Part shown: in pieces, positions 23,679 to 55,928 of the stretch
Layout of the letters: each line of letters begins with the position of its first letter
Numbering within the stretch: the stretch's first letter is position 1
Origin: Escherichia coli
GTDB lineage: Bacteria > Pseudomonadota > Gammaproteobacteria > Enterobacterales > Enterobacteriaceae
Assembly (NCBI RefSeq): GCF_022846255.1
Contig: NZ_AP025682.1
Reading direction: 5' to 3' (one strand)
Length of the DNA: 64,000 bases
Notes under the pieces: generated by a model
What the model saw: the letters and a program-made list of their open reading frames with translations, nothing else
Databases searched by the model: none
What the model was told of the DNA's origin: nothing
Made by a program: the position numbers and the translations under genes

Positions 23679-23710
23679 TGATGACTCCGGATAACGATGT
23701 CAGGTTATTG

Positions 23711-23725
23711 GCAAAAGGCGTGCCA
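23711..23725 (-). promoter_or_regulatory. Sigma54 (-24/-12) promoter motif upstream of lafB
   Basis: Minus strand reads TGGCACgccttTTGC, a perfect match to TGGCAC-N5-TTGC; predicted start site about 20 nt upstream of the lafB ATG, which has a GGAG Shine-Dalgarno. Confidence 0.6.
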
Positions 23726-23842
23726 ATAATTTTTATGTGAATAATCAATAAATTGAAAAAGGGGCGGAAATGGTGTTTCCGGTCTGGCGGAAAAAAGCCT
23801 GCCGCTGAAAGCACAACACCGCCCGCAGGCGGTGTTGTTCGT

Positions 23843-36211: not shown

Positions 36212-36228
36212 AGCAATCGCCGTGCCAT
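36212..36228 (-). promoter_or_regulatory. Sigma54 (-24/-12) promoter motif for the lfgB...L operon
   Basis: Minus strand reads TGGCACggcgaTTGCT, a perfect match to TGGCAC-N5-TTGCW, about 25 nt upstream of the lfgB start. Confidence 0.65.
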
Positions 36229-36256: not shown

Positions 36257-36994
36257 ATGAGTTTTCAATTTTGCAGGCGGAAGTTTTATTTCCTCCTGGC
36301 GCTGGCCTTACCGGGCTACGCCGCCGTCCATCCCGTGCAACATAGCGCGCGGGAACAAGTCAACGCCCAGGTGCTGAATGCCGCCAGCCAGCAGATTGAA
36401 TCGCTAGCGCAGCAGCGGCAGTGGCATGACTATCGCTACACCTTTAAGGTCTACATTCCCTCGCAGATTTCGACTGCCGCGCCCTGCGCTACGGCCCCCG
36501 GCGTCACGCTGACTTCGCCTGCGGAAATCGCTCTCAACCGGATGAACTTCACCGTCAGTTGCCCGCAAAGCTGGCAGATGAACGTCGCGGTGCGCCCGGA
36601 TGTTCTGGTACCGGTGGTGATGGCAAAGTCACTGGTTGCCCGCGATACGCCGCTCACGGCAAATGATGTGGAGCTGAAGCCCTACAACGTCAGCGCCCAG
36701 CGTCGCGATGTGTTGATGGAGCTTGATGACGCGATTGGTTTCAGCAGTAAACACGCGTTGCAGCCGGGCAGGCCAATCACCAAAGAAGAACTGATATCTC
36801 CGGTGCTGGTCGAGCGCGATCAACCGGTGATGATTGTTTACCAGAGCGCGGGGATCAGCGCCTCGCTGCCCGGCGTGGCGCTGAAAAATGGTCGTAAGGG
36901 CGAGATGGTGAAAGTGCGTAACGCCAGCAGCCAGCGGGTCATCAGCGCGATGGTGGCAGAAAGCGGCGTGGTGACGACGGTAAGCGCGGAGTAA
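36257..36994 (+). CDS. lfgA: P-ring assembly chaperone LfgA (FlgA-like); ORF-track start is 36236
   Basis: Signal-peptide-like N-terminus, FlgA-like C-terminal domain; divergent from lfgB as in flgA/flgB arrangements. Confidence 0.75.
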   Translation: MSFQFCRRKFYFLLALALPGYAAVHPVQHSAREQVNAQVLNAASQQIESLAQQRQWHDYRYTFKVYIPSQISTAAPCATAPGVTLTSPAEIALNRMNFTVSCPQSWQMNVAVRPDVLVPVVMAKSLVARDTPLTANDVELKPYNVSAQRRDVLMELDDAIGFSSKHALQPGRPITKEELISPVLVERDQPVMIVYQSAGISASLPGVALKNGRKGEMVKVRNASSQRVISAMVAESGVVTTVSAE

Positions 36995-37074
36995 TTTGCG
37001 CAGGCGATTAAAGTTTTGCCGCCTGTTAACCGCTTTACTGGAGTAACCCACCTAAATACCGAGACGAGGTTGCG

Positions 37075-37353
37075 ATGAAAATCACCCCGACTATGCCAGG
37101 CAATCGCCCGACAGCCACAACGGCTGGCTCCAGCCAGCCACGCAAAAGCACGGCGACCACCACCACGACGCAGAGCGCAGACGACATTACCCAGGCGGGA
37201 TTGCAGTCTGCCCAGCAAACGCTGAACGACCAGCAAGAGAGCGATATCGACAGCGATAAAGTGGCGCAAATGCAGGCGATGCTGGCGTCCGGCAGCCTGC
37301 AAGTGGACACCGAACAGTTAGCCAGCGACATGCTGAGTTTTTTCCAGAACTAA
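37075..37353 (+). CDS. lfgM: Anti-sigma-28 factor LfgM (FlgM-like), 92 aa
   Basis: Small ORF with FlgM-like C-terminus (VDTEQLASDMLSFF) in the flgA-flgM-flgN order. Confidence 0.7.
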   Translation: MKITPTMPGNRPTATTAGSSQPRKSTATTTTTQSADDITQAGLQSAQQTLNDQQESDIDSDKVAQMQAMLASGSLQVDTEQLASDMLSFFQN

Positions 37354-37365
37354 GAGGCCGATGAA

Positions 37366-37794
37366 GTGAGTATCCGGTTACAACAGGTGAAGGCGTTGTT
37401 GCAGGGCATTCGTGACGACGACGCACTGTACGATTCCCTGCGCGAACTTCTCCAGCGTCAGCGGATCTGCATGATTCGCCGCGCCAGCGAAGATCTGCTG
37501 GCGGTAAACGACGAGATAACGCAGCACTATGAACAGTTGCATGGGCATAGCCATCAGCGGCACAGCCTGCTGAAAATGCTTAATGTCAGTGTAAATCGTG
37601 ACGGTCTGGCGCAGGTTTTTGCCTGGCTTCCGGCTGTGCAAAAAGCAGCAGCACAACAGTTGTGGCAACGCCTTGAGCAAAAAGCGGAACGCTGCAAAGC
37701 CTACAACGACAAAAACGGCGAGCTGTTGATTCGCCAGTATGAATTTATTCAGTCTTTTTTAGGCGGCGAAACAGATTTTCTGTACCAGGAATAA
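37366..37794 (+). CDS. lfgN: Export chaperone LfgN (FlgN-like), 142 aa
   Basis: Helical ORF immediately downstream of the flgM-like gene. Confidence 0.7.
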   Translation: MSIRLQQVKALLQGIRDDDALYDSLRELLQRQRICMIRRASEDLLAVNDEITQHYEQLHGHSHQRHSLLKMLNVSVNRDGLAQVFAWLPAVQKAAAQQLWQRLEQKAERCKAYNDKNGELLIRQYEFIQSFLGGETDFLYQE

Positions 37795-37921
37795 CGACAA
37801 TTCCTTCCGCCATCGCGGAAACGGATTTTCCGCCTGATTCTCAATCCCTTGTTTTTGATTACAAAAATTCCCGGCACGCTTATTGCACATTCCGCAAAGT
37901 AATAAAGACTGGAAGCCACCT

Positions 37922-41484: not shown

Positions 41485-41566
41485 TGCCTGATGCGCTTCG
41501 CTTATCAGGCCTACGGATCGATCACGTCTTGTAGGCAGATAAGGCGTTTACGCCGCATCCGGAAAG
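41485..41566. repeat. Pair of REP elements downstream of the glycosyltransferase gene
   Basis: GCCTGATGCGCTTCGCTTATCAGGCCTAC and GTAGGCAGATAAGGCGTTTACGCCGCATCCGG. Confidence 0.6.
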
Positions 41567-47113: not shown

Positions 47114-47455
47114 TTATATCGACATACTCATCAGGTCGTTAAACCCGGTGGCGATTTTATTGCGCACCTGCACCAGCGCGGAGAAAGAGAGCGACGCCTG
47201 CTGGCTGGCGATCATCGCACCTGCTAAATCATCACTTTTGCCCGTGTCGATAGCTGTTTGCTGCTGCTCCGCCACCTGCTGGAACTGGTCAACGTGACCG
47301 AGCGCGCCGGACATAATGCGGTTAAACGAAACGTCCGGGTCGGTGGAACTGAAGGTCATGGCGGGCAGCACCGGTGCCTGGGCGTTGGCCTGCATCCGCT
47401 GCACGTCCTGCATGATTTGCGCCTGCATGGTGCTGTTGATTGTGGTAATGCTCAT
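47114..47455 (-). CDS. lfiE: Hook-basal body protein LfiE (FliE-like), 113 aa
   Basis: Small ORF with FliE-like C-terminus; 14 nt downstream of lafK. Confidence 0.75.
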   Translation of the reverse strand: MSITTINSTMQAQIMQDVQRMQANAQAPVLPAMTFSSTDPDVSFNRIMSGALGHVDQFQQVAEQQQTAIDTGKSDDLAGAMIASQQASLSFSALVQVRNKIATGFNDLMSMSI

Positions 47456-47469
47456 TTTTAACTTCCGGG

Positions 47470-48456
47470 TCAGGAGAAAACTTCGATACCGTGCTTGCGC
47501 ATGGAGGCCAGTCGATAGCGCAGTGCGCGCGGGGTAATGCCTAACAGGTCGGCAATTTTGCTGCGGTTGCCCTGATATTTACGCATCAGGTCGGCGATAT
47601 ATTGATACTGCGCACTTCGTCCGGCCTGGCCTAAATCGCTGGTTTCCGCAACAGATACGGAGGGCTGAACAGGCCATTGCAGTTCACTGTGATCGGCAAC
47701 GTCTATTTCCGGCAGGCCTAAGGCATCCGGGAAAATCACGCCGTCGCGGTTTAAAATCATTCCCCGCTGAATGGCGTTCTCCAGCTGACGCACGTTGCCG
47801 GGCCAGCGGTAATTGAGCAGCGCCCGGCGGGTAGATTCTGAAAGGGTGATATTTTTCACCAGCACCGTGGAGTATTTTTTAATAAATGACTCTGCCAATG
47901 GAATAATATCGTTCAGACGTTCACGCAGCGGCGGCATGGTAATAGGAATTACCGCCAGACGATAATAGAGATCTTCACGAAAACGCCCGGCGGCAACTTC
48001 CTGTTCAAGGTTTTTATTGGTACAGGCAATCAGGCGAAAATTGAGTTTAATTTGTCGGTTGCTGCCTAATCGCTCAACCTGTTGTTCCTGCAACACGCGT
48101 AATATTTTGGCCTGAAGCGCCAGCGGCATATCGCCAATTTCATCGAGTAATAAGGTGCCGTTATTCGCCAGTTCCATTTTTCCTGGCACGCTGGCAATTG
48201 CGCCGGTAAATGCACCTTTGTCGTAGCCAAATAAGGTAGATTCCAGCATATTTTCCGGGATCGCCGCGCAGTTCACGCCGACATAGGGTGCGCTTTCATT
48301 TTCACCAAAGGCTACGGTGTGAATATATTTTGCCACGCACTCTTTGCCCGCGCCGGTTTCGCCCTGAATGAGCACCGGCACGTTAAATGCGGCGACACGC
48401 TTTGCCAGAGTAAAAGCGTTAATGCTGGAAGCGGCAGTTGCAATAAGTTCAGACAT
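47470..48456 (-). CDS. lafK: Sigma54-dependent transcriptional activator LafK, 328 aa, AAA+ domain plus C-terminal HTH, no receiver domain
   Basis: Walker A GETGAGKE, GAFTGA motif (ESTLFGYDKGAFTGA), Walker B LLLDEIGDMP, FREDLYYRL, C-terminal HTH (NRSKIADLLGITPRALRYRL); in-frame stop 25 codons upstream of the ATG. Confidence 0.85.
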   Translation of the reverse strand: MSELIATAASSINAFTLAKRVAAFNVPVLIQGETGAGKECVAKYIHTVAFGENESAPYVGVNCAAIPENMLESTLFGYDKGAFTGAIASVPGKMELANNGTLLLDEIGDMPLALQAKILRVLQEQQVERLGSNRQIKLNFRLIACTNKNLEQEVAAGRFREDLYYRLAVIPITMPPLRERLNDIIPLAESFIKKYSTVLVKNITLSESTRRALLNYRWPGNVRQLENAIQRGMILNRDGVIFPDALGLPEIDVADHSELQWPVQPSVSVAETSDLGQAGRSAQYQYIADLMRKYQGNRSKIADLLGITPRALRYRLASMRKHGIEVFS

Positions 48457-48584
48457 AGGGTGAACGATATAAGTAGCGACATTAATCAGGATGTTCTGAA
48501 GCGTATCACCGGTGGGATTAACAAGTTCGAATTAAACGATAATAAAAATATTATTTGTTTATAAACAATGAGTTATAACCGCAG

Positions 48585-48662
48585 GCCGGATAAAGCGTTT
48601 ACGCCGCATCCGGCAATCGTGCACCGGTGCCTGATGCGACGCTGCGCGTCTTATCAGGCCTA
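48585..48662. repeat. Pair of REP elements in the lafK-lfiM divergent intergenic region
   Basis: GCCGGATAAAGCGTTTACGCCGCATCCGGC and GCCTGATGCGACGCTGCGCGTCTTATCAGGCCTAC. Confidence 0.6.
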
Positions 48663-48842
48663 CAGTTCGTGCAATGTTTTATGACGATGCCCTATATCTC
48701 GCCCGTTAATAATTTAATTATTTTTTCACCCTATTAATAATTTGCCCCTTTCACTCCCCCTCTATTTAATACCTCACCTTGTGTCACTGCCGGATTTGCG
48801 TGCACAAAATCGCCCATACCATTACAGCAGAGAAAGTAAGCC

Positions 48843-49694
48843 ATGCTGAAGTACAGTAAAACGCCAGGCATCTTTAAATTAGAAGGTAATCGGCTCGGAC
48901 GCCCCTACCATCGCCTGCCGACCCTGTTTACGGGGAATTTTGACGTGATTGATTCGCATCTGGGCAGCTACTTTCTCAAAAAGCATCGCAGCAATATCAC
49001 CTTAAAAAAGATTGGCTGCGAAATGGATATTATTAATAAAAACGCCGAACTGATGGTTTCCCAGGTCGGGCATCTGGCGTTTGATATTGATCGCTCCTTA
49101 TTGTTAATGCTGCTGGGCAATTTTTATGGTCTGGAGTCCTCTCTCGAAGAGGCGAAAGACCATAATGGCCTGCCGACCAAAACCGAAACGCGGTTAAAAA
49201 ACCGCCTCGCGCTGGATATCTGCACGCTGATTTTTAATCTGCAAACCTCCGGTATTGCGCTGAAATTAAAGATGGACAGCAGCACGGTAATTACCCACTG
49301 GGCGTATCAATTAACCTTTACCCTTGCGGGCGATGAAGAGAGCAGCTTTCGTATTTTGCTCGACGACGCCCACACCGATTTTATTTTAAATCTGATCCGC
49401 CACAGCGAGCACAGTAAACCGCAGCAGGTGGCGAAATCGGTCAATAAACCGGCCCTGATTAAAGAAATCATCCGCTCCCTGCCGTTGACTCTGAACGTCA
49501 AAATCGCCGAGCTATCGATGAATGTCGCCGATCTGGCGCAGATAAAAGCCGGGGATATTTTACCCATTTCGCTGGGAGAAACGTTCCCGGTGGCGATTGG
49601 GCAATCTGAATTATTTAGCGCCCTGATTGTGGAAGACAAAGACAAACTGTTTTTGTCGGAGCTGGCGGGCAAGAATGAGAATAGCCATGAGTAA
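48843..49694 (+). CDS. lfiM: Switch protein LfiM (FliM-like), 283 aa
   Basis: FliM-like middle domain; first gene of the lfiMNPQR-lfhBA operon. Confidence 0.8.
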   Translation: MLKYSKTPGIFKLEGNRLGRPYHRLPTLFTGNFDVIDSHLGSYFLKKHRSNITLKKIGCEMDIINKNAELMVSQVGHLAFDIDRSLLLMLLGNFYGLESSLEEAKDHNGLPTKTETRLKNRLALDICTLIFNLQTSGIALKLKMDSSTVITHWAYQLTFTLAGDEESSFRILLDDAHTDFILNLIRHSEHSKPQQVAKSVNKPALIKEIIRSLPLTLNVKIAELSMNVADLAQIKAGDILPISLGETFPVAIGQSELFSALIVEDKDKLFLSELAGKNENSHE

Positions 49695-52995: not shown

Positions 52996-55072
52996 ATCGT
53001 TCCTCGCGCCGCTGCGCGGCGGCAATCTCGGCGTGCCGTTGGTGATCCTGTGTATTCTGGCGATGGTTATTCTGCCGCTGCCGCCTGCGCTGCTGGATAT
53101 TCTGTTCACCTTCAACATTGTGCTGGCGGTGATGGTGCTGCTGGTGGCCGTGTCGGCGAAAAGGCCGCTGGAATTCAGCCTGTTCCCGACCATTTTGCTG
53201 ATCACCACCTTAATGCGTCTGACGCTTAACGTTGCTTCTACGCGCGTGGTGCTGCTACACGGGCATCTCGGCGCGGGCGCGGCGGGTAAGGTGATTGAGT
53301 CGTTTGGTCAGGTGGTGATTGGCGGCAACTTTGTCGTCGGTTTCGTGGTATTTATCATCCTGATGATCATCAACTTTATCGTCGTAACCAAGGGGGCCGA
53401 GCGTATTTCCGAGGTTTCTGCCCGCTTTACCCTGGACGCGATGCCCGGCAAACAGATGGCGATTGACGCCGATCTTAACGCCGGGTTGATCAACCAGACG
53501 CAGGCGCAAACCCGGCGTAAAGATGTCGCCAGCGAGGCCGATTTCTACGGCGCAATGGACGGGGCATCAAAATTTGTGCGCGGGGACGCCATCGCCGGGA
53601 TGATGATTCTGGCGATCAACCTGATCGGCGGCGTCTGTATCGGCATCTTCAAATACAACCTGAGCGCCGACGCCGCCTTCCAGCAATATGTGCTGATGAC
53701 TATCGGCGATGGGCTGGTGGCGCAAATCCCTTCCCTGCTGCTCTCCACCGCGGCGGCGATTATCGTCACCCGCGTCAGCGATAACGGTGATATCGCCCAT
53801 GACGTGCGTAATCAGTTGCTGGCAAGCCCGTCGGTTCTCTACACCGCCACTGGAATTATGTTCGTGCTGGCGGTGGTGCCGGGAATGCCGCATTTCCCGT
53901 TCCTGATGTTCAGCGCCCTGCTTGGTTTTACCGGCTGGCGGATGAGCAAGCGCCCGCAAGCGGCGGAGGCGGAAGAGAAAAGCCTCGAAACGCTAACCCG
54001 TACGATGACAGAAACCAGCGAGCAACAGGTCAGTTGGGAAACTATTCCGCTGATCGAACCTATCAGTTTAAGCCTCGGCTACAAACTGGTGGCGCTGGTG
54101 GATAAAGCGCAGGGCAACCCGCTCACCCAGCGTATTCGCGGCGTACGTCAGGTGATTTCCGACGGCAACGGCGTGCTGCTGCCGGAGATCCGTATTCGGG
54201 AAAACTTCCGTCTCAAGCCCAGCCAGTACGCCATTTTCATCAACGGCATTAAGGCTGATGAAGCGGATATTCCGGCGGATAAACTGATGGCCCTGCCCTC
54301 CAGCGAAACCTACGGCGAGATTGACGGCGTACTGGGGAATGACCCGGCATATGGGATGCCGGTCACCTGGATTCAGCCTGCGCAGAAAGCGAAGGCGCTG
54401 AATATGGGGTATCAGGTGATCGACAGCGCCAGCGTGATTGCCACCCATGTGAACAAGATTGTGCGCAGCTATATTCCTGACCTCTTTAACTATGACGATA
54501 TTACGCAGTTGCATAACCGCCTGTCGTCGATGGCACCGCGACTGGCGGAAGATTTGAGCGCGGCACTCAATTACAGCCAATTGCTGAAAGTGTACCGGGC
54601 GCTGCTGACCGAAGGCGTTTCCCTGCGCGATATCGTCACCATCGCCACCGTGCTGGTCGCCAGTAGTGCGGTGACCAAAGATCATATTCTGCTGGCGGCA
54701 GATGTGCGCCTGGCGCTGCGGCGCAGCATTACCCATCCGTTCGTTCGCAAGCAGGAGCTGACGGTGTATACGCTGAATAATGAGCTGGAAAATCTGCTGA
54801 CCAACGTGGTGAATCAGGCGCAACAGGCCGGCAAAGTGATGCTCGACAGCGTGCCAGTGGACCCGAATATGCTCAACCAGTTCCAGAGTACGATGCCGCA
54901 GGTAAAAGAGCAGATGAAAGCGGCGGGGAAAGATCCGGTGCTGCTGGTGCCTCCGCAGCTGCGCCCTTTGCTGGCGCGCTATGCAAGGTTGTTTGCGCCG
55001 GGGCTGCATGTGCTGTCGTATAACGAAGTGCCGGATGAGTTGGAGTTGAAGATAATGGGGGCGTTGAGTTGA
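52979..55072 (+). CDS. lfhA: Export gate protein LfhA (FlhA-like; fhiA counterpart), 697 aa
   Basis: FlhA-like N-terminal TM domain and large cytoplasmic domain, full length. Confidence 0.92.
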   Translation: MAKTTKSFLAPLRGGNLGVPLVILCILAMVILPLPPALLDILFTFNIVLAVMVLLVAVSAKRPLEFSLFPTILLITTLMRLTLNVASTRVVLLHGHLGAGAAGKVIESFGQVVIGGNFVVGFVVFIILMIINFIVVTKGAERISEVSARFTLDAMPGKQMAIDADLNAGLINQTQAQTRRKDVASEADFYGAMDGASKFVRGDAIAGMMILAINLIGGVCIGIFKYNLSADAAFQQYVLMTIGDGLVAQIPSLLLSTAAAIIVTRVSDNGDIAHDVRNQLLASPSVLYTATGIMFVLAVVPGMPHFPFLMFSALLGFTGWRMSKRPQAAEAEEKSLETLTRTMTETSEQQVSWETIPLIEPISLSLGYKLVALVDKAQGNPLTQRIRGVRQVISDGNGVLLPEIRIRENFRLKPSQYAIFINGIKADEADIPADKLMALPSSETYGEIDGVLGNDPAYGMPVTWIQPAQKAKALNMGYQVIDSASVIATHVNKIVRSYIPDLFNYDDITQLHNRLSSMAPRLAEDLSAALNYSQLLKVYRALLTEGVSLRDIVTIATVLVASSAVTKDHILLAADVRLALRRSITHPFVRKQELTVYTLNNELENLLTNVVNQAQQAGKVMLDSVPVDPNMLNQFQSTMPQVKEQMKAAGKDPVLLVPPQLRPLLARYARLFAPGLHVLSYNEVPDELELKIMGALS

Positions 55073-55102
55073 TGGGGGAGACTATATAAGGTCTCGGACT
55101 GT

Positions 55103-55127
55103 CCCCTCGCCCCTTTGGGGCGAGGGA
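55103..55127. repeat. Perfect hairpin repeat unit between convergent lfhA and yafL
   Basis: CCCCTCGCCCC-ttt-GGGGCGAGGG; related to units of the compound repeat at 29572 and 38862; no U-run, so not called a terminator. Confidence 0.4.
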
Positions 55128-55169
55128 GAAAAACGTGTACGACTTTAACTTTTTCGCAGTATTGCCGTC

Positions 55170-55928
55170 CTACAAAATCGTCTCTTCCGTCAAAATCCGC
55201 CGCGCGCCTAAAAAATGATCCTGCCAGAAAGGTTCAGCTAACCGGCTTATCCGAATGGTTTCGCCGGTACGTGGTGACTCGATAAACTGACCGTCTCCCA
55301 GATACACCCCCATATGATCGGCTATCTCGCGGCTGTGAATATGGAAAAACAGCAAATCTCCCCGGCGCAGGTCGTTATTCGCCACAATCGTTGCCCGACG
55401 GTAGTGGTACATCTCATTGGCCGTGCGCGGGAGCTTAGCCTCAAGGATCTTGTTGTAGGCATAAAAAACCAACCCGCTACAGTCGAAGCCTTTATCAGGC
55501 CGCGTGCCCCCCCAGATATAAGGCTTACCTAGCTGCTGCTCCAGGCGGTGAATCGCCACTTCGGTGATGTTATGTAGATGGTCGCTGCTTAAGAAATGAT
55601 TATTCTCCACCAACGCCTGCCAGCGTCTGTCACTCGCCTTGAGCGGCGCAGGAAACCATTCTGGATGCTGTTTTATCTGCTCCCGATTATGCTGGCGCAG
55701 CGCCCTTCTGCTTTTGGCATTGCCTTCCACAATATAGCTGGCCTGCTTTTTCAGATGGGTTTGGTACTGTTTTAATAAACGCGCACGGTTTTGCATCCGC
55801 TGGCGGGCGGCGTAGCTAAAAGAGATATGTGATGTGGTGGCGCTGGCGAGTAAAGGGAGCAAAACGCATAACGAAAACACGCCTGGATGCAGAAATCTGC
55901 CGTGCAAGAACGAAGACATGAAGGACAT
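55170..55928 (-). CDS. yafL: NlpC/P60-family peptidoglycan endopeptidase YafL, 252 aa
   Basis: Signal peptide; catalytic Cys context (GFDCSGLVFYAY) and His (DHMGVYLG). Confidence 0.85.
   Translation of the reverse strand: MSFMSSFLHGRFLHPGVFSLCVLLPLLASATTSHISFSYAARQRMQNRARLLKQYQTHLKKQASYIVEGNAKSRRALRQHNREQIKQHPEWFPAPLKASDRRWQALVENNHFLSSDHLHNITEVAIHRLEQQLGKPYIWGGTRPDKGFDCSGLVFYAYNKILEAKLPRTANEMYHYRRATIVANNDLRRGDLLFFHIHSREIADHMGVYLGDGQFIESPRTGETIRISRLAEPFWQDHFLGARRILTEETIL

Follow-up and report, generated by a model that had tools for sequence, protein, structure and literature searches.

Organisation of the lafK locus

We analysed a 64,000-nucleotide stretch of Escherichia coli contig NZ_AP025682.1 (hereafter, the window), which carries the ordinary lafK gene of an enterobacterial Flag-2 (secondary, lateral-type) flagellar locus. 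The gene lies directly upstream of fliE-fliF-fliG-fliH-fliI-fliJ homologues in a lateral-type flagellar cluster. Its neighbourhood consists of lfiPNM followed by lafK-lfiEFGHIJ running in the opposite direction, an arrangement that matches Flag-2 lafK in E. coli annotation. The start of lfiE lies 14 nt past the lafK stop; from this short gap and the shared strand, we infer that lafK-lfiEFGHIJ are co-transcribed with lafK as the first gene. A similar lafK-fliE order is found in Citrobacter, Hafnia, Budvicia, Vibrio campbellii, an Aeromonadaceae MAG and Pseudomonas fragi, and the annotation of neighbouring genes contains no histidine kinase gene beside E. coli lafK. The window allele shares 98.4% DNA identity with the two best complete E. 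coli genomes and ~96% with most others. An identical 987-bp CDS is called by PGAP in E. coli genomes. PGAP and published annotation already carry the gene and the name lafK. The features of the locus are as follows.

47114..47455, minus strand: lfiE (FliE homologue), from ORF, sequence and annotation
47470..48456, minus strand: lafK CDS, ATG start, encoding a 328-aa sigma54-dependent enhancer-binding protein, from ORF, Pfam and PGAP
47506..47607, minus strand: Fis-type HTH DNA-binding domain, residues 284-317 (PF02954 HTH_8, E 7.7e-09)
47719..47925, minus strand: AAA+ lid domain, residues 178-246 (PF25601 AAA_lid_14, E 1.1e-19)
47941..48441, minus strand: AAA+ sigma54-interaction domain, residues 6-172 (PF00158 Sigma54_activat, E 1.9e-64)
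48199-48216, minus strand: GAFTGA loop (sigma54 contact), residues 81-86, exact match, intact
48340-48363, minus strand: Walker A, GETGAGKE, residues 32-39, intact
48457..48842, no strand: lafK-lfiM spacer, 386 bp, with conserved AT-rich flanks and a polymorphic middle (four E. coli strains aligned)
48584..48616, minus strand: REP element, Y-type (GCCGGATGCGGCGTAAACGCTTTATCCGGCC), from a REP scan
48627..48660, plus strand: REP element, Z-type (GCCTGATGCGACGCTGCGCGTCTTATCAGGCC), from a REP scan
48843..49694, plus strand: lfiM (FliM-like), at the head of the divergent lfiMNPQR-lfhBA run, from ORF and annotation

Domain content and family placement of LafK

The original prediction described LafK as a sigma54 activator reduced to an AAA+ domain and a C-terminal HTH, with an open reading frame starting about 30 residues before Walker A, and both points hold. 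A Pfam scan of the 328 aa returned Sigma54_activat (216.8 bits against a cut-off of 20.2), AAA_lid_14 and HTH_8, and nothing at the N-terminus, be it a receiver, FleQ or any other domain. Since Walker A occupies residues 32-39, the reading frame begins 31 residues ahead of it. Walker B (LLLDE, residues 102-106) and PGNVRQL (residues 219-225) are also intact. The traits of an enhancer-binding protein, namely Walker A and B, GAFTGA, an HTH and a putative regulon with cognate -24/-12 elements, are all present, and the predicted function of LafK is ATP-dependent activation of sigma54-RNA polymerase.

The protein had also been called PspF-like. This is correct for the layout of AAA+ and HTH domains, but the sequence is nearest to FlrC. 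The closest solved relative is FlrC (4qhs, E 9e-75), with PspF at E 1e-53, and among PDB matches PspF is more distant than FlrC, NtrC1 or FleQ. LafK falls far under both PspF cut-offs, scoring 238.2 bits with TIGR02974 (cut-off 443.55) and 206 bits with PRK11608 (cut-off 529), the latter aligned end to end (LafK residues 3-325 to model positions 7-326 of 329). Nor is LafK an NtrC-type response regulator, having neither a receiver nor an adjacent kinase; for regulators of that type the order FleQ-kinase-activator-fliE is seen. A published list (PMC3162934) counts LafK with the enhancer-binding proteins that have no signal domain. A search of 1.84 billion representatives returned mostly generic sigma54 activators and a handful of useful short forms. 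Receiver-less activators also occur directly upstream of fliE in unrelated lineages, so such short forms arose repeatedly or may be old.

The short form is the rule in Enterobacterales

More than 100 LafK orthologue clusters were found in Enterobacterales, all of 324-348 aa and with the same domains. The same N-terminus is present at this length in Citrobacter, Leminorella, Enterobacter, Pseudescherichia, Atlantibacter and Siccibacter, and equally in Budvicia, Pragia, Pantoea, Hafnia and Regiella. The window LafK shares 94-98% identity with E. coli clusters and 60-83% with those of other genera. Budvicia and Pragia are reported to be motile and to lack the primary flagellar locus (flag-1) (PMC6993521). 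Orthologues from intact lateral systems sharing the N-terminus had been named as the finding that would make the short form simply the family architecture; within Enterobacterales such orthologues exist, the reportedly motile Budvicia and Pragia among them, and the missing domain is not peculiar to this sequence. The shared N-terminus across genera identifies the short form as the normal enterobacterial architecture and not as decay in this strain, and as every enterobacterial copy is receiver-less, the window lafK is neither broken nor unusual.

Three candidates for receiver- or ACT-bearing LafK, P0057 (463 aa), P0070 (462 aa) and P0078 (521 aa), were rejected as metagenome assembly chimeras. 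They are 68-71% identical to LafK, to which they are joined within the conserved FREDL...PPLRER stretch. We take the N-terminal two thirds to be E. coli NtrC in P0070 and TyrR in P0078. P0070 adjoins a PAS/HisKA/HATPase histidine-kinase gene.

Long-form relatives carry a receiver-like domain

LafK of V. parahaemolyticus and V. campbellii is 443-444 aa long, and about 100 LafK clusters in Vibrionaceae span 441-456 aa. The V. campbellii protein (444 aa, context motY-lafK-fliEFGH) was the best non-Escherichia tblastn match in the plasmid collection. E. coli LafK residues 1-328 align to residues 122-437 of Vibrio LafK at 50% identity, with Met1 corresponding to residue 122. The alignment, proposed as a way to see whether a domain is missing, thus answers in two parts: an N-domain of ~120 aa is indeed absent from E. 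coli, but what Vibrio retains there is a receiver that has itself degenerated. With the Pfam receiver model it reaches 22.3, under the cut-off of 30.2, and the phospho-acceptor Asp54 is replaced by Ser, Thr82 by Val and Lys104 by Arg. To say of all LafK that it is without an N-terminal domain is therefore too broad, in that Vibrio keeps a degenerate receiver and the enterobacterial protein has none.

A LafK-like protein of Aeromonadaceae (450 aa, context fliR-flhBA-X-fliEFGHI) scores 52 bits with Response_reg, and a relative from P. fragi (468 aa, upstream of fliEFGH) has an N-terminus matching the LafK N-domain HMM (E 1e-13). All three types of N-domain, from Vibrio, aeromonads and P. fragi, show homology with one another and with Response_reg. 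An Aeromonas caviae match (H22) was rejected as LafK, being part of a polar FlrA-FlrB-FlrC set. Of the traits of the LafK group, genomic context and full-length similarity to Vibrio LafK are present in E. coli and the N-terminal receiver-like domain is absent; this absence defines a short subtype and does not exclude LafK membership. In a neighbour-joining tree, enterobacterial LafK is monophyletic (100% bootstrap) with P. fragi as its sister (56%), and the wider LafK grouping is weak (22-57%).

The lafK-lfiM spacer holds no receiver relic

Translation upstream of the lafK ATG runs through 25 sense codons to an in-frame stop, as predicted, with more stops beyond. It had further been stated that no minus-strand frame in this region could encode a receiver. 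Within the 386-bp spacer, stop-to-stop frames on the lafK strand reach 39 codons at most, in agreement with that statement, and a cross-species ORF comparison found no frame conserved between species. The DNA ahead of lafK was searched for remains of a receiver and for a split gene in E. coli, Citrobacter, Hafnia and Budvicia, with a best E-value above 3 by tblastn and of 0.8 with an HMM built from 119 LafK N-domains; the same HMM detected no relic in a six-frame translation of the whole window. An upstream frame restoring the receiver, which would have spoken against the prediction, was looked for and not found in four genera.

The REP elements are imperfect palindromes of ~33 nt with heads GCC(G/T)GATGCG and tails CTTATC(C/A)GGCC. 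They lie head to head on opposite strands, 10 nt apart, and form a BIME 122 bp upstream of the lafK start codon, with arms (48602-48615 and 48628-48641) that are 86% complementary. By the published consensus sequences, the subtypes are presumably Y and Z2. Six more REPs occur elsewhere in the window, and the strict consensus is expected to give 0 chance matches in shuffled sequence. The 89-bp REP segment recurs in part in 4247 of 5426 E. coli genomes, K-12 and other Flag-2-less strains included, and is hence a dispersed repeat. At this site, the BIME is present in E. coli L001 and L002; strain 702/18 has a different element in its place (four-strain spacer alignment), and in a BIME-free E. coli strain the lafK start is unchanged. 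The spacers of Citrobacter, Hafnia and Budvicia (594-641 bp), upstream of an equally short LafK, contain no REPs and no BIME. Restricted to Escherichia and variable there, the BIME is an insert framed by conserved stretches of the spacer, and because REP-less species have the same short protein, the REPs are not the cause of a truncation.

The two REPs had been placed in a divergent promoter region. The elements are there, but no convincing sigma70 or sigma54 promoter was found in the spacer at the thresholds used, and these scans gave none for lafK itself. The sole GG-N10-GC match in the spacer has four mismatches.

Sigma54 promoters and a candidate enhancer

Elements relevant to LafK targets elsewhere in the window are as follows.

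23710..23725, minus strand: presumed LafK target, sigma54 element TGGCACGCCTTTTGCC located 31 nt ahead of the ATG of lafB (FliD-like)
23763..23792, minus strand: candidate LafK enhancer, a 30-nt motif (TTCCGCCAGACCGGAAACACCATTTCCGCC) whose end lies 37 nt before the lafB sigma54 element
36212..36227, minus strand: presumed LafK target ahead of lfgB, a perfect sigma54 -24/-12 element (TGGCACGGCGATTGCT)
36276..36293, minus strand: partial motif copy GGAAAT-N4-CTTCCGCC, weak alone, located 48 nt before the lfgB sigma54 element
37805..37834, plus strand: second copy of the 30-nt motif (TTCCGCCATCGCGGAAACGGATTTTCCGCC), its end 37 nt before the VR1 sigma54 element
37872..37887, plus strand: sigma54-like element (CGGCACGCTTATTGCA) preceding the VR1 genes for a lysine-N-methylase and a glycosyltransferase

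Both lfgB and lafB have published sigma54 sites, that of lfgB in E. coli PCN033 (PMC4578781). Over the window as a whole, the number of consensus matches does not exceed chance (6 observed, 3.6 expected with <=1 mismatch), so the argument for targets rests on the positions of the sites: the elements at lfgB, lafB and VR1 lie at correct distances from their start codons, and the lafB element is identical in Pseudocitrobacter, Citrobacter and E. whittamii. The conserved 30-nt motif lies exactly 37 nt upstream of two of these promoters (lafB and VR1), which makes it a candidate LafK enhancer; a genome-wide scan for this enhancer-like motif gave 27 matches in unrelated taxa, taken as chance. The three promoters and a shared upstream motif provide concrete cis-elements for testing activation of the cryptic Flag-2 system by lafK alone.

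Discussion

Much of this was already known: the gene, its name, its sigma54 dependence, the lack of a signal domain and the lfgB and lafB promoters. The analysis adds little by way of discovery, and its use is to clear the suspicion that the window lafK is a truncated pseudogene. In our reading, to which we give a probability of about 80%, this is a standard lafK derived from an FlrC/FleR-type ancestor, with the receiver lost lineage-wide, control by expression or a partner protein, and a later BIME insertion. A single loss of the domain in the whole clade, leaving no relic upstream, is the best reading of the enterobacterial form, because Vibrio-type, aeromonad and P. fragi relatives keep the N-domain. 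LafK would have descended from a flagellar response regulator of the FlrC/FleR type occupying the same place immediately upstream of fliE-fliF-fliG. Its receiver would then have decayed, being still recognisable in the aeromonad type and degenerate, without the phospho-acceptor Asp, in Vibrio, and been deleted entirely in the common ancestor of enterobacterial Flag-2 loci; control by phosphorylation probably disappeared earlier than the domain itself.

Judged from its architecture, with neither an inhibitory nor an activating N-domain, LafK would be active whenever made. Against this, NtrC-type regulators stripped of the receiver become inactive and not constitutive, and the ancestor of LafK may have been of that class. 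LafK would assemble on DNA through its C-terminal HTH and use ATP hydrolysis and the GAFTGA loop to open the sigma54 promoters at lfgB and lafB, with the VR1 flagellin-modification genes as a probable further target. If LafK is active whenever made, the control point would be lafK transcription or translation, or a partner protein; the proposal that activity is set by expression or a partner, made in the original prediction, seems reasonable on this basis. The REP pair would be a BIME that inserted later, and in Escherichia only, in the middle part of the spacer, which is dispensable; it is unrelated to LafK architecture.

That E. coli lafK is instead a 5'-truncated remnant, its receiver part taken by the REP/BIME insertion or a local deletion during Flag-2 decay, might be suggested by a BIME only 122 bp from the start codon, by the ~120 additional residues in Vibrio and by the frequent degradation of E. 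coli Flag-2 loci (PMC6993521). We consider this very improbable: LafK is equally short in the REP-free Citrobacter, Hafnia and Budvicia, tblastn and the family HMM found no receiver relic, the catalytic motifs are intact, the BIME-free strain has an unchanged lafK start, and the three seemingly N-domain-bearing enterobacterial copies are assembly chimeras. Short activators upstream of fliE in several distant lineages, together with the poorly supported deep branches of the tree, could point to an ancestral short LafK, the N-domain of Vibrio, Aeromonas and P. fragi having been gained later. The closest characterised relatives (FlrC, FleR and NtrC-type proteins) nevertheless all bear receivers, the N-domains concerned share homology with each other and with Response_reg, decay accounts for a degenerate receiver more readily than gain does, and the short enterobacterial clade has a long-form sister. 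An ancestral short form is accordingly unlikely, although the polarity of loss over gain rests on a distance tree with weak deep nodes.

PspF is restrained by PspA and HrpS by HrpV; no PspA- or HrpV-like partner of LafK is known. A partner that restrains LafK, such that expression alone is insufficient, would suit a domain layout equal to that of PspF and HrpR/HrpS, and in V. parahaemolyticus the EAL-like LafV is reported to repress surface-regulon genes when LafK is present (PMC9303241); no candidate was identified in the locus, however, and LafK is not of the PspF or HrpS family by sequence. We regard such restraint as rather doubtful, and it is compatible with clade-wide receiver loss, not exclusive of it.

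A bolder, tentative version that we hold somewhat less likely than its converse joins two elements: a decay series from kinase-coupled FlrC/FleR through an orphan receiver (aeromonad) and a pseudo-receiver (Vibrio) to none (Enterobacterales), and a constitutive LafK acting at a tripartite enhancer. The latter would be a previously undescribed TTCCGCC-N4-CGGAAAC-N4-TTTCCGCC located 37 nt upstream of sigma54 promoters, one of which would then drive flagellin methylase and glycosyltransferase cargo genes.

Comparison with known systems

The REP pair does not differ from known E. coli REP/BIME elements, being inverted, extragenic and recurrent in the window and across genomes. FlrC of Vibrio cholerae and FleR of Pseudomonas share with LafK the core domains and the position upstream of fliE, but their receiver is canonical and phosphorylatable and they are paired with a cognate kinase, two features that LafK lacks. 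PspF and HrpR/HrpS ('type Ic', Francke et al. 2011) consist of AAA+ and HTH only, as LafK does, without it belonging to either family by sequence. Vibrio LafK and E. coli LafK have the AAA+, lid and HTH_8 core in common and are both encoded immediately upstream of fliE-fliF-fliG-fliH; they differ in the ~120-aa degenerate receiver-like N-domain, which E. coli lacks, and in the preceding gene, motY in Vibrio and the divergent fliM in E. coli. The LafK of the E. coli 042 Flag-2 locus is reportedly covered by Ren et al. 2005. Compared with that protein and with LafK of other enterobacterial Flag-2 loci (De Maayer et al. 2020, PMC6993521), the window lafK is the same gene in the same position with the same domains, and at 328 aa, like E. 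coli LafK, it shows no substantive difference from that of strain 042.

The lafK gene encodes an ordinary enterobacterial Flag-2 LafK

The lafK gene encodes a 328-residue protein in which a Pfam scan found three domains and no other:

47470..48456, minus strand: lafK ORF, 328 aa
LafK residues 6-172: Sigma-54 interaction domain (Pfam)
LafK residues 178-246: AAA+ lid (Pfam)
LafK residues 284-317: Fis-type HTH (Pfam)
14 nt downstream of lafK: lfiE (FliE-like), the next gene
From 48843: lfiM, divergent neighbour of lafK

The catalytic motifs are intact: Walker A (GETGAGKE, residues 32-39), the GAFTGA loop that contacts sigma54 (81-86), Walker B (102-106) and the PGNVRQL sensor region (219-225). 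The original prediction described an ORF that starts about 30 residues before Walker A and contains only the AAA+ sigma54-interaction domain and a C-terminal HTH; we count 31 residues, and the Pfam result agrees. The housekeeping gene fadE in the window matches E. coli at 98.7-99.1% identity, and the window is an E. coli Flag-2 locus. Two complete genomes match the lafK region at 98.4% identity, and more than 1200 others at about 96%. In matching genomes the NCBI pipeline calls exactly the same 987-bp CDS ("sigma-54 interaction domain-containing protein"), with FliE-F-G-H-I-J and FliM/N-P-Q-R-FlhB-A on its two sides. LafK here is the already described enterobacterial Flag-2 protein, neither truncated nor a novel regulator. 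The closest complete genome, E. coli JNE120442, carries a type II restriction-modification pair between lfgM and lfgA and, between lfhA and yafL, the gene rayT for a REP-associated transposase; both are absent from the window (36994-37366 and 55072-55170).

The short form extends across Enterobacterales: more than 100 homologue clusters, 324-348 aa throughout and with the same Pfam set, come from Citrobacter, Leminorella, Enterobacter, Pseudescherichia, Scandinavium, Atlantibacter, Siccibacter, Budvicia, Pragia, Pantoea, Paramixta, Hafnia and Regiella. The length spread reflects short, unconserved N-terminal extensions from differing start-codon calls, and synteny in Citrobacter, Hafnia and Budvicia is identical to that in E. 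coli. That the short N-terminus might be a peculiarity does not hold within the order, where orthologues share it; the form is not peculiar to this sequence. Budvicia aquatica and Pragia fontium are reported to be motile without a primary flagellar locus (De Maayer et al., PMC6993521), so the short LafK belongs to Flag-2 systems that presumably work.

Three metagenome-derived "proteins" (P0057, P0070 and P0078) were rejected as LafKs with an N-terminal domain. They are assembly chimeras, with foreign sequence joined to a LafK C-terminal part in the conserved FREDL...PPLRER stretch. The N-terminal part of P0057 reads as a response regulator; those of P0070 and P0078 read as the corresponding parts of E. 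coli NtrC and TyrR, respectively. Such chimeras could mislead domain-architecture surveys.

The lafK-lfiM spacer carries a polymorphic BIME

Two REP elements were predicted in the lafK-lfiM spacer and both are present, head to head with 10 nt between them, forming a typical BIME. Other spacers of the window hold six more:

48584-48616, minus strand: Y-type REP
48627-48660, plus strand: Z-type REP
41486-41511 (plus strand) and 41534-41564 (minus strand): second inverted REP pair, between the glycosyltransferase gene of variable region 1 (VR1) and a small cytidylyltransferase-like gene adjoining lfiJ
23843, 26140, 31825 and 32685: single REPs in other Flag-2 spacers

The pair is kept in both other aligned E. 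coli strains besides 702/18, in which ~140 bp in the middle of the spacer (aligned to 48575-48715 of the window) is swapped for an unrelated, GC-rich, repeat-like sequence that includes …CCCTCACCCTAACCCTCTCCCCGGATGGGGCGAGGGGAC…. The ~135 bp adjoining lafK and ~165 bp adjoining lfiM are conserved in all four aligned E. coli. At least 80% of the spacer query is covered in 1152 of the 1287 genomes that have the spacer; the strains in which a GC-rich element stands in place of the BIME and adjoining sequence are a minority of E. coli. Outside Escherichia the BIME is absent from the spacers of Citrobacter, Hafnia and Budvicia, which are 594-641 bp long, AT-rich (30-35% G+C) and free of REPs. The BIME is a polymorphic insertion into the dispensable middle of the spacer, a hot spot for small repeat elements; it is unrelated to the LafK N-terminus, and the REP pair is incidental.

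Likely LafK targets and a candidate enhancer

Three sigma54 elements are well placed to be LafK targets, two of them preceded by a 30-nt block, TTCCGCCA-N3-CGGAAAC-N4-TTTCCGCC:

36212-36227: perfect sigma54 element, TGGCAC-N5-TTGCT, upstream of lfgB
23710-23725: sigma54 element TGGCACGCCTTTTGCC, 31 nt before the lafB start
37872-37887, plus strand: sigma54-type element CGGCACGCTTATTGCA, about 35 nt upstream of the VR1 lysine-N-methylase and glycosyltransferase genes
23763-23792, minus strand: 30-nt block
37805-37834, plus strand: 30-nt block
36276-36293, minus strand: partial block copy, 48 nt upstream of the lfgB promoter

The window holds 6 sigma54 consensus matches against 3.6 expected, which is not above chance overall; the argument for these three as likely targets is their placement, not their number. 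The lfgB and lafB sites have been reported in strain PCN033, in a list that names only these two (PMC4578781). The VR1 element suggests that flagellin-modification genes are wired into the LafK regulon.

All 23 specified positions agree between the two block copies, and the distance from the end of the block to the sigma54 element downstream is exactly 37 nt in both (lafB; VR1 methylase). Since the pattern was built on these two sites, that it matches them alone, where shuffled sequence yields an expectation of none, does not count as independent evidence. Within the block are a TTCCG-N6-CGGAA palindrome and a third direct repeat. The 37 nt between block and sigma54 element are rich in A+T, and a TCAAT-N3/4-TTG stretch reminiscent of an IHF site occurs at both copies. 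The partial copy at lfgB is spaced about one helical turn further out (48 vs 37 nt).

A relaxed 19-base pattern, scanned over 100,044 species genomes, matched 32 loci, five of them enterobacterial. Where the sequence runs far enough downstream (Pseudocitrobacter faecalis, a Citrobacter MAG and E. whittamii), the block belongs to the lafB promoter, and neither the 37-nt spacing nor the sigma54 element differs; in Escherichia sp. E1V33 the spacing is the same as far as TGGCAC, where the locus ends, and in Pseudocitrobacter vendiensis the locus ends before the promoter. Differences within the block are confined to N positions in all five, which, since they were chosen by exact match, makes conservation suggestive rather than proven. 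The remaining 27 loci, in unrelated taxa, are best treated as chance. We found no mention of the block in the literature consulted; as a candidate LafK enhancer, it is a specific motif now open to test.

The window contains the 8-mer TTTCCGCC 15 times (4.0 expected), a count that none of 100 shuffles reached. Eleven of the sites fall between 19 and 38 kb, with a concentration in Flag-2 clusters 2 and 3. Because most of them are within genes, composition or codon usage, rather than binding, may account for the excess.

Probable loss of a degenerate receiver domain

LafK is longer in Vibrionaceae (441-456 aa in about a hundred clusters). V. campbellii LafK, reached by tblastn of a plasmid collection in which chromosome 2 is filed as a plasmid, is a 444-aa activator flanked by a motY-like gene and by fliE-fliF-fliG-fliH, and upstream lies a fliM-like gene in divergent orientation, which is the Vibrio lateral arrangement; the 90% cluster of this LafK includes V. 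parahaemolyticus members of 443-444 aa. E. coli LafK 1-328 aligns to V. parahaemolyticus LafK 122-437 (50% identity), so about 120 residues are missing. Of the two possibilities raised for this alignment, it bears out the first, an N-terminal domain missing in E. coli; within Enterobacterales the short form is the ordinary architecture.

The V. campbellii N-terminal region scores 22.3 bits for Response_reg (cut-off 30.2). Aligned with NtrC and FlrC, the Vibrio domain has Glu-Pro at the acidic pair, Ser for Asp54, Val for Thr82 and Arg for Lys104; by score and residues it is a degenerate receiver relative. Relatives from an Aeromonadaceae MAG (context fliR-flhB-flhA-X-fliE-F-G-H-I), Pseudaeromonas, Gallaecimonas and Thalassomonas exceed the threshold (37-53 bits), and the aeromonad relatives retain Asp54 and Lys104. 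Francke et al. place LafK with PspF and HrpRS, without a signal-recognition domain (PMC3162934); a Pfam-based classification would miss the sub-threshold Vibrio domain, which probably explains this listing.

No receiver remains upstream of E. coli lafK. As predicted, an in-frame stop lies beyond 25 sense codons, with further stops behind it, and no frame could encode a receiver, the longest on the lafK strand of the 386-bp spacer being 39 codons. An HMM built from 119 LafK N-domains found no match upstream of lafK in four enterobacterial genera, where the best E was 0.8, or in the six-frame translation of the whole window; tblastn and cross-species ORF comparison found no receiver relic upstream of lafK.

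In a neighbour-joining tree of the LafK core (317 columns, 100 bootstraps), the enterobacterial short LafKs are monophyletic (100%). Their sister (56%) is a 468-aa Pseudomonas fragi protein, likewise upstream of fliE-F-G-H. The best reading of these sequences is that the receiver was lost once, and completely, at the root of the enterobacterial Flag-2 loci. Loss of the kinase, and of the phospho-acceptor residues, would have come earlier. The opposite polarity, with the short form older and the receiver gained, draws on the weakly supported deep nodes of the tree and on activators without a receiver that hold this position in other lineages (two metagenome contigs and one MAG each of Steroidobacteraceae and Pseudomonadales), but the short clade has a long-form sister whose N-terminus matches the N-domain HMM (E 1e-13), and we consider gain unlikely. 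Under the preferred loss, the original prediction is refined: the domain absent from E. coli LafK would be an already degenerate receiver, lost clade-wide.

In other lineages, receiver-less activators occupy the FleR/FlrC position upstream of fliE (Pseudomonadales MAG L014, 1772-5400; Steroidobacteraceae MAG L013, 2663-5370; locus L003, 5312-7011). One, of 350 aa, comes immediately after a FleQ-like gene and a histidine-kinase gene, and the kinase has no obvious receiver; a second has a FleQ-like gene before it but no kinase gene; ahead of the third is an overlapping 230-aa gene for a partial activator.

With full enhancer-binding-protein equipment and no regulatory module, LafK would be active whenever expressed; we infer, in line with the original prediction, that control acts on lafK expression or through a partner protein. 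The "PspF-like architecture" originally assigned to it stands for domain layout and fails for closeness by sequence. The nearest characterised relatives are FlrC (4qhs, E 9e-75), then NifA, NtrC1 and FleQ, all with receivers, whereas PspF, well behind at E 1e-53, shares only its domain layout with LafK.
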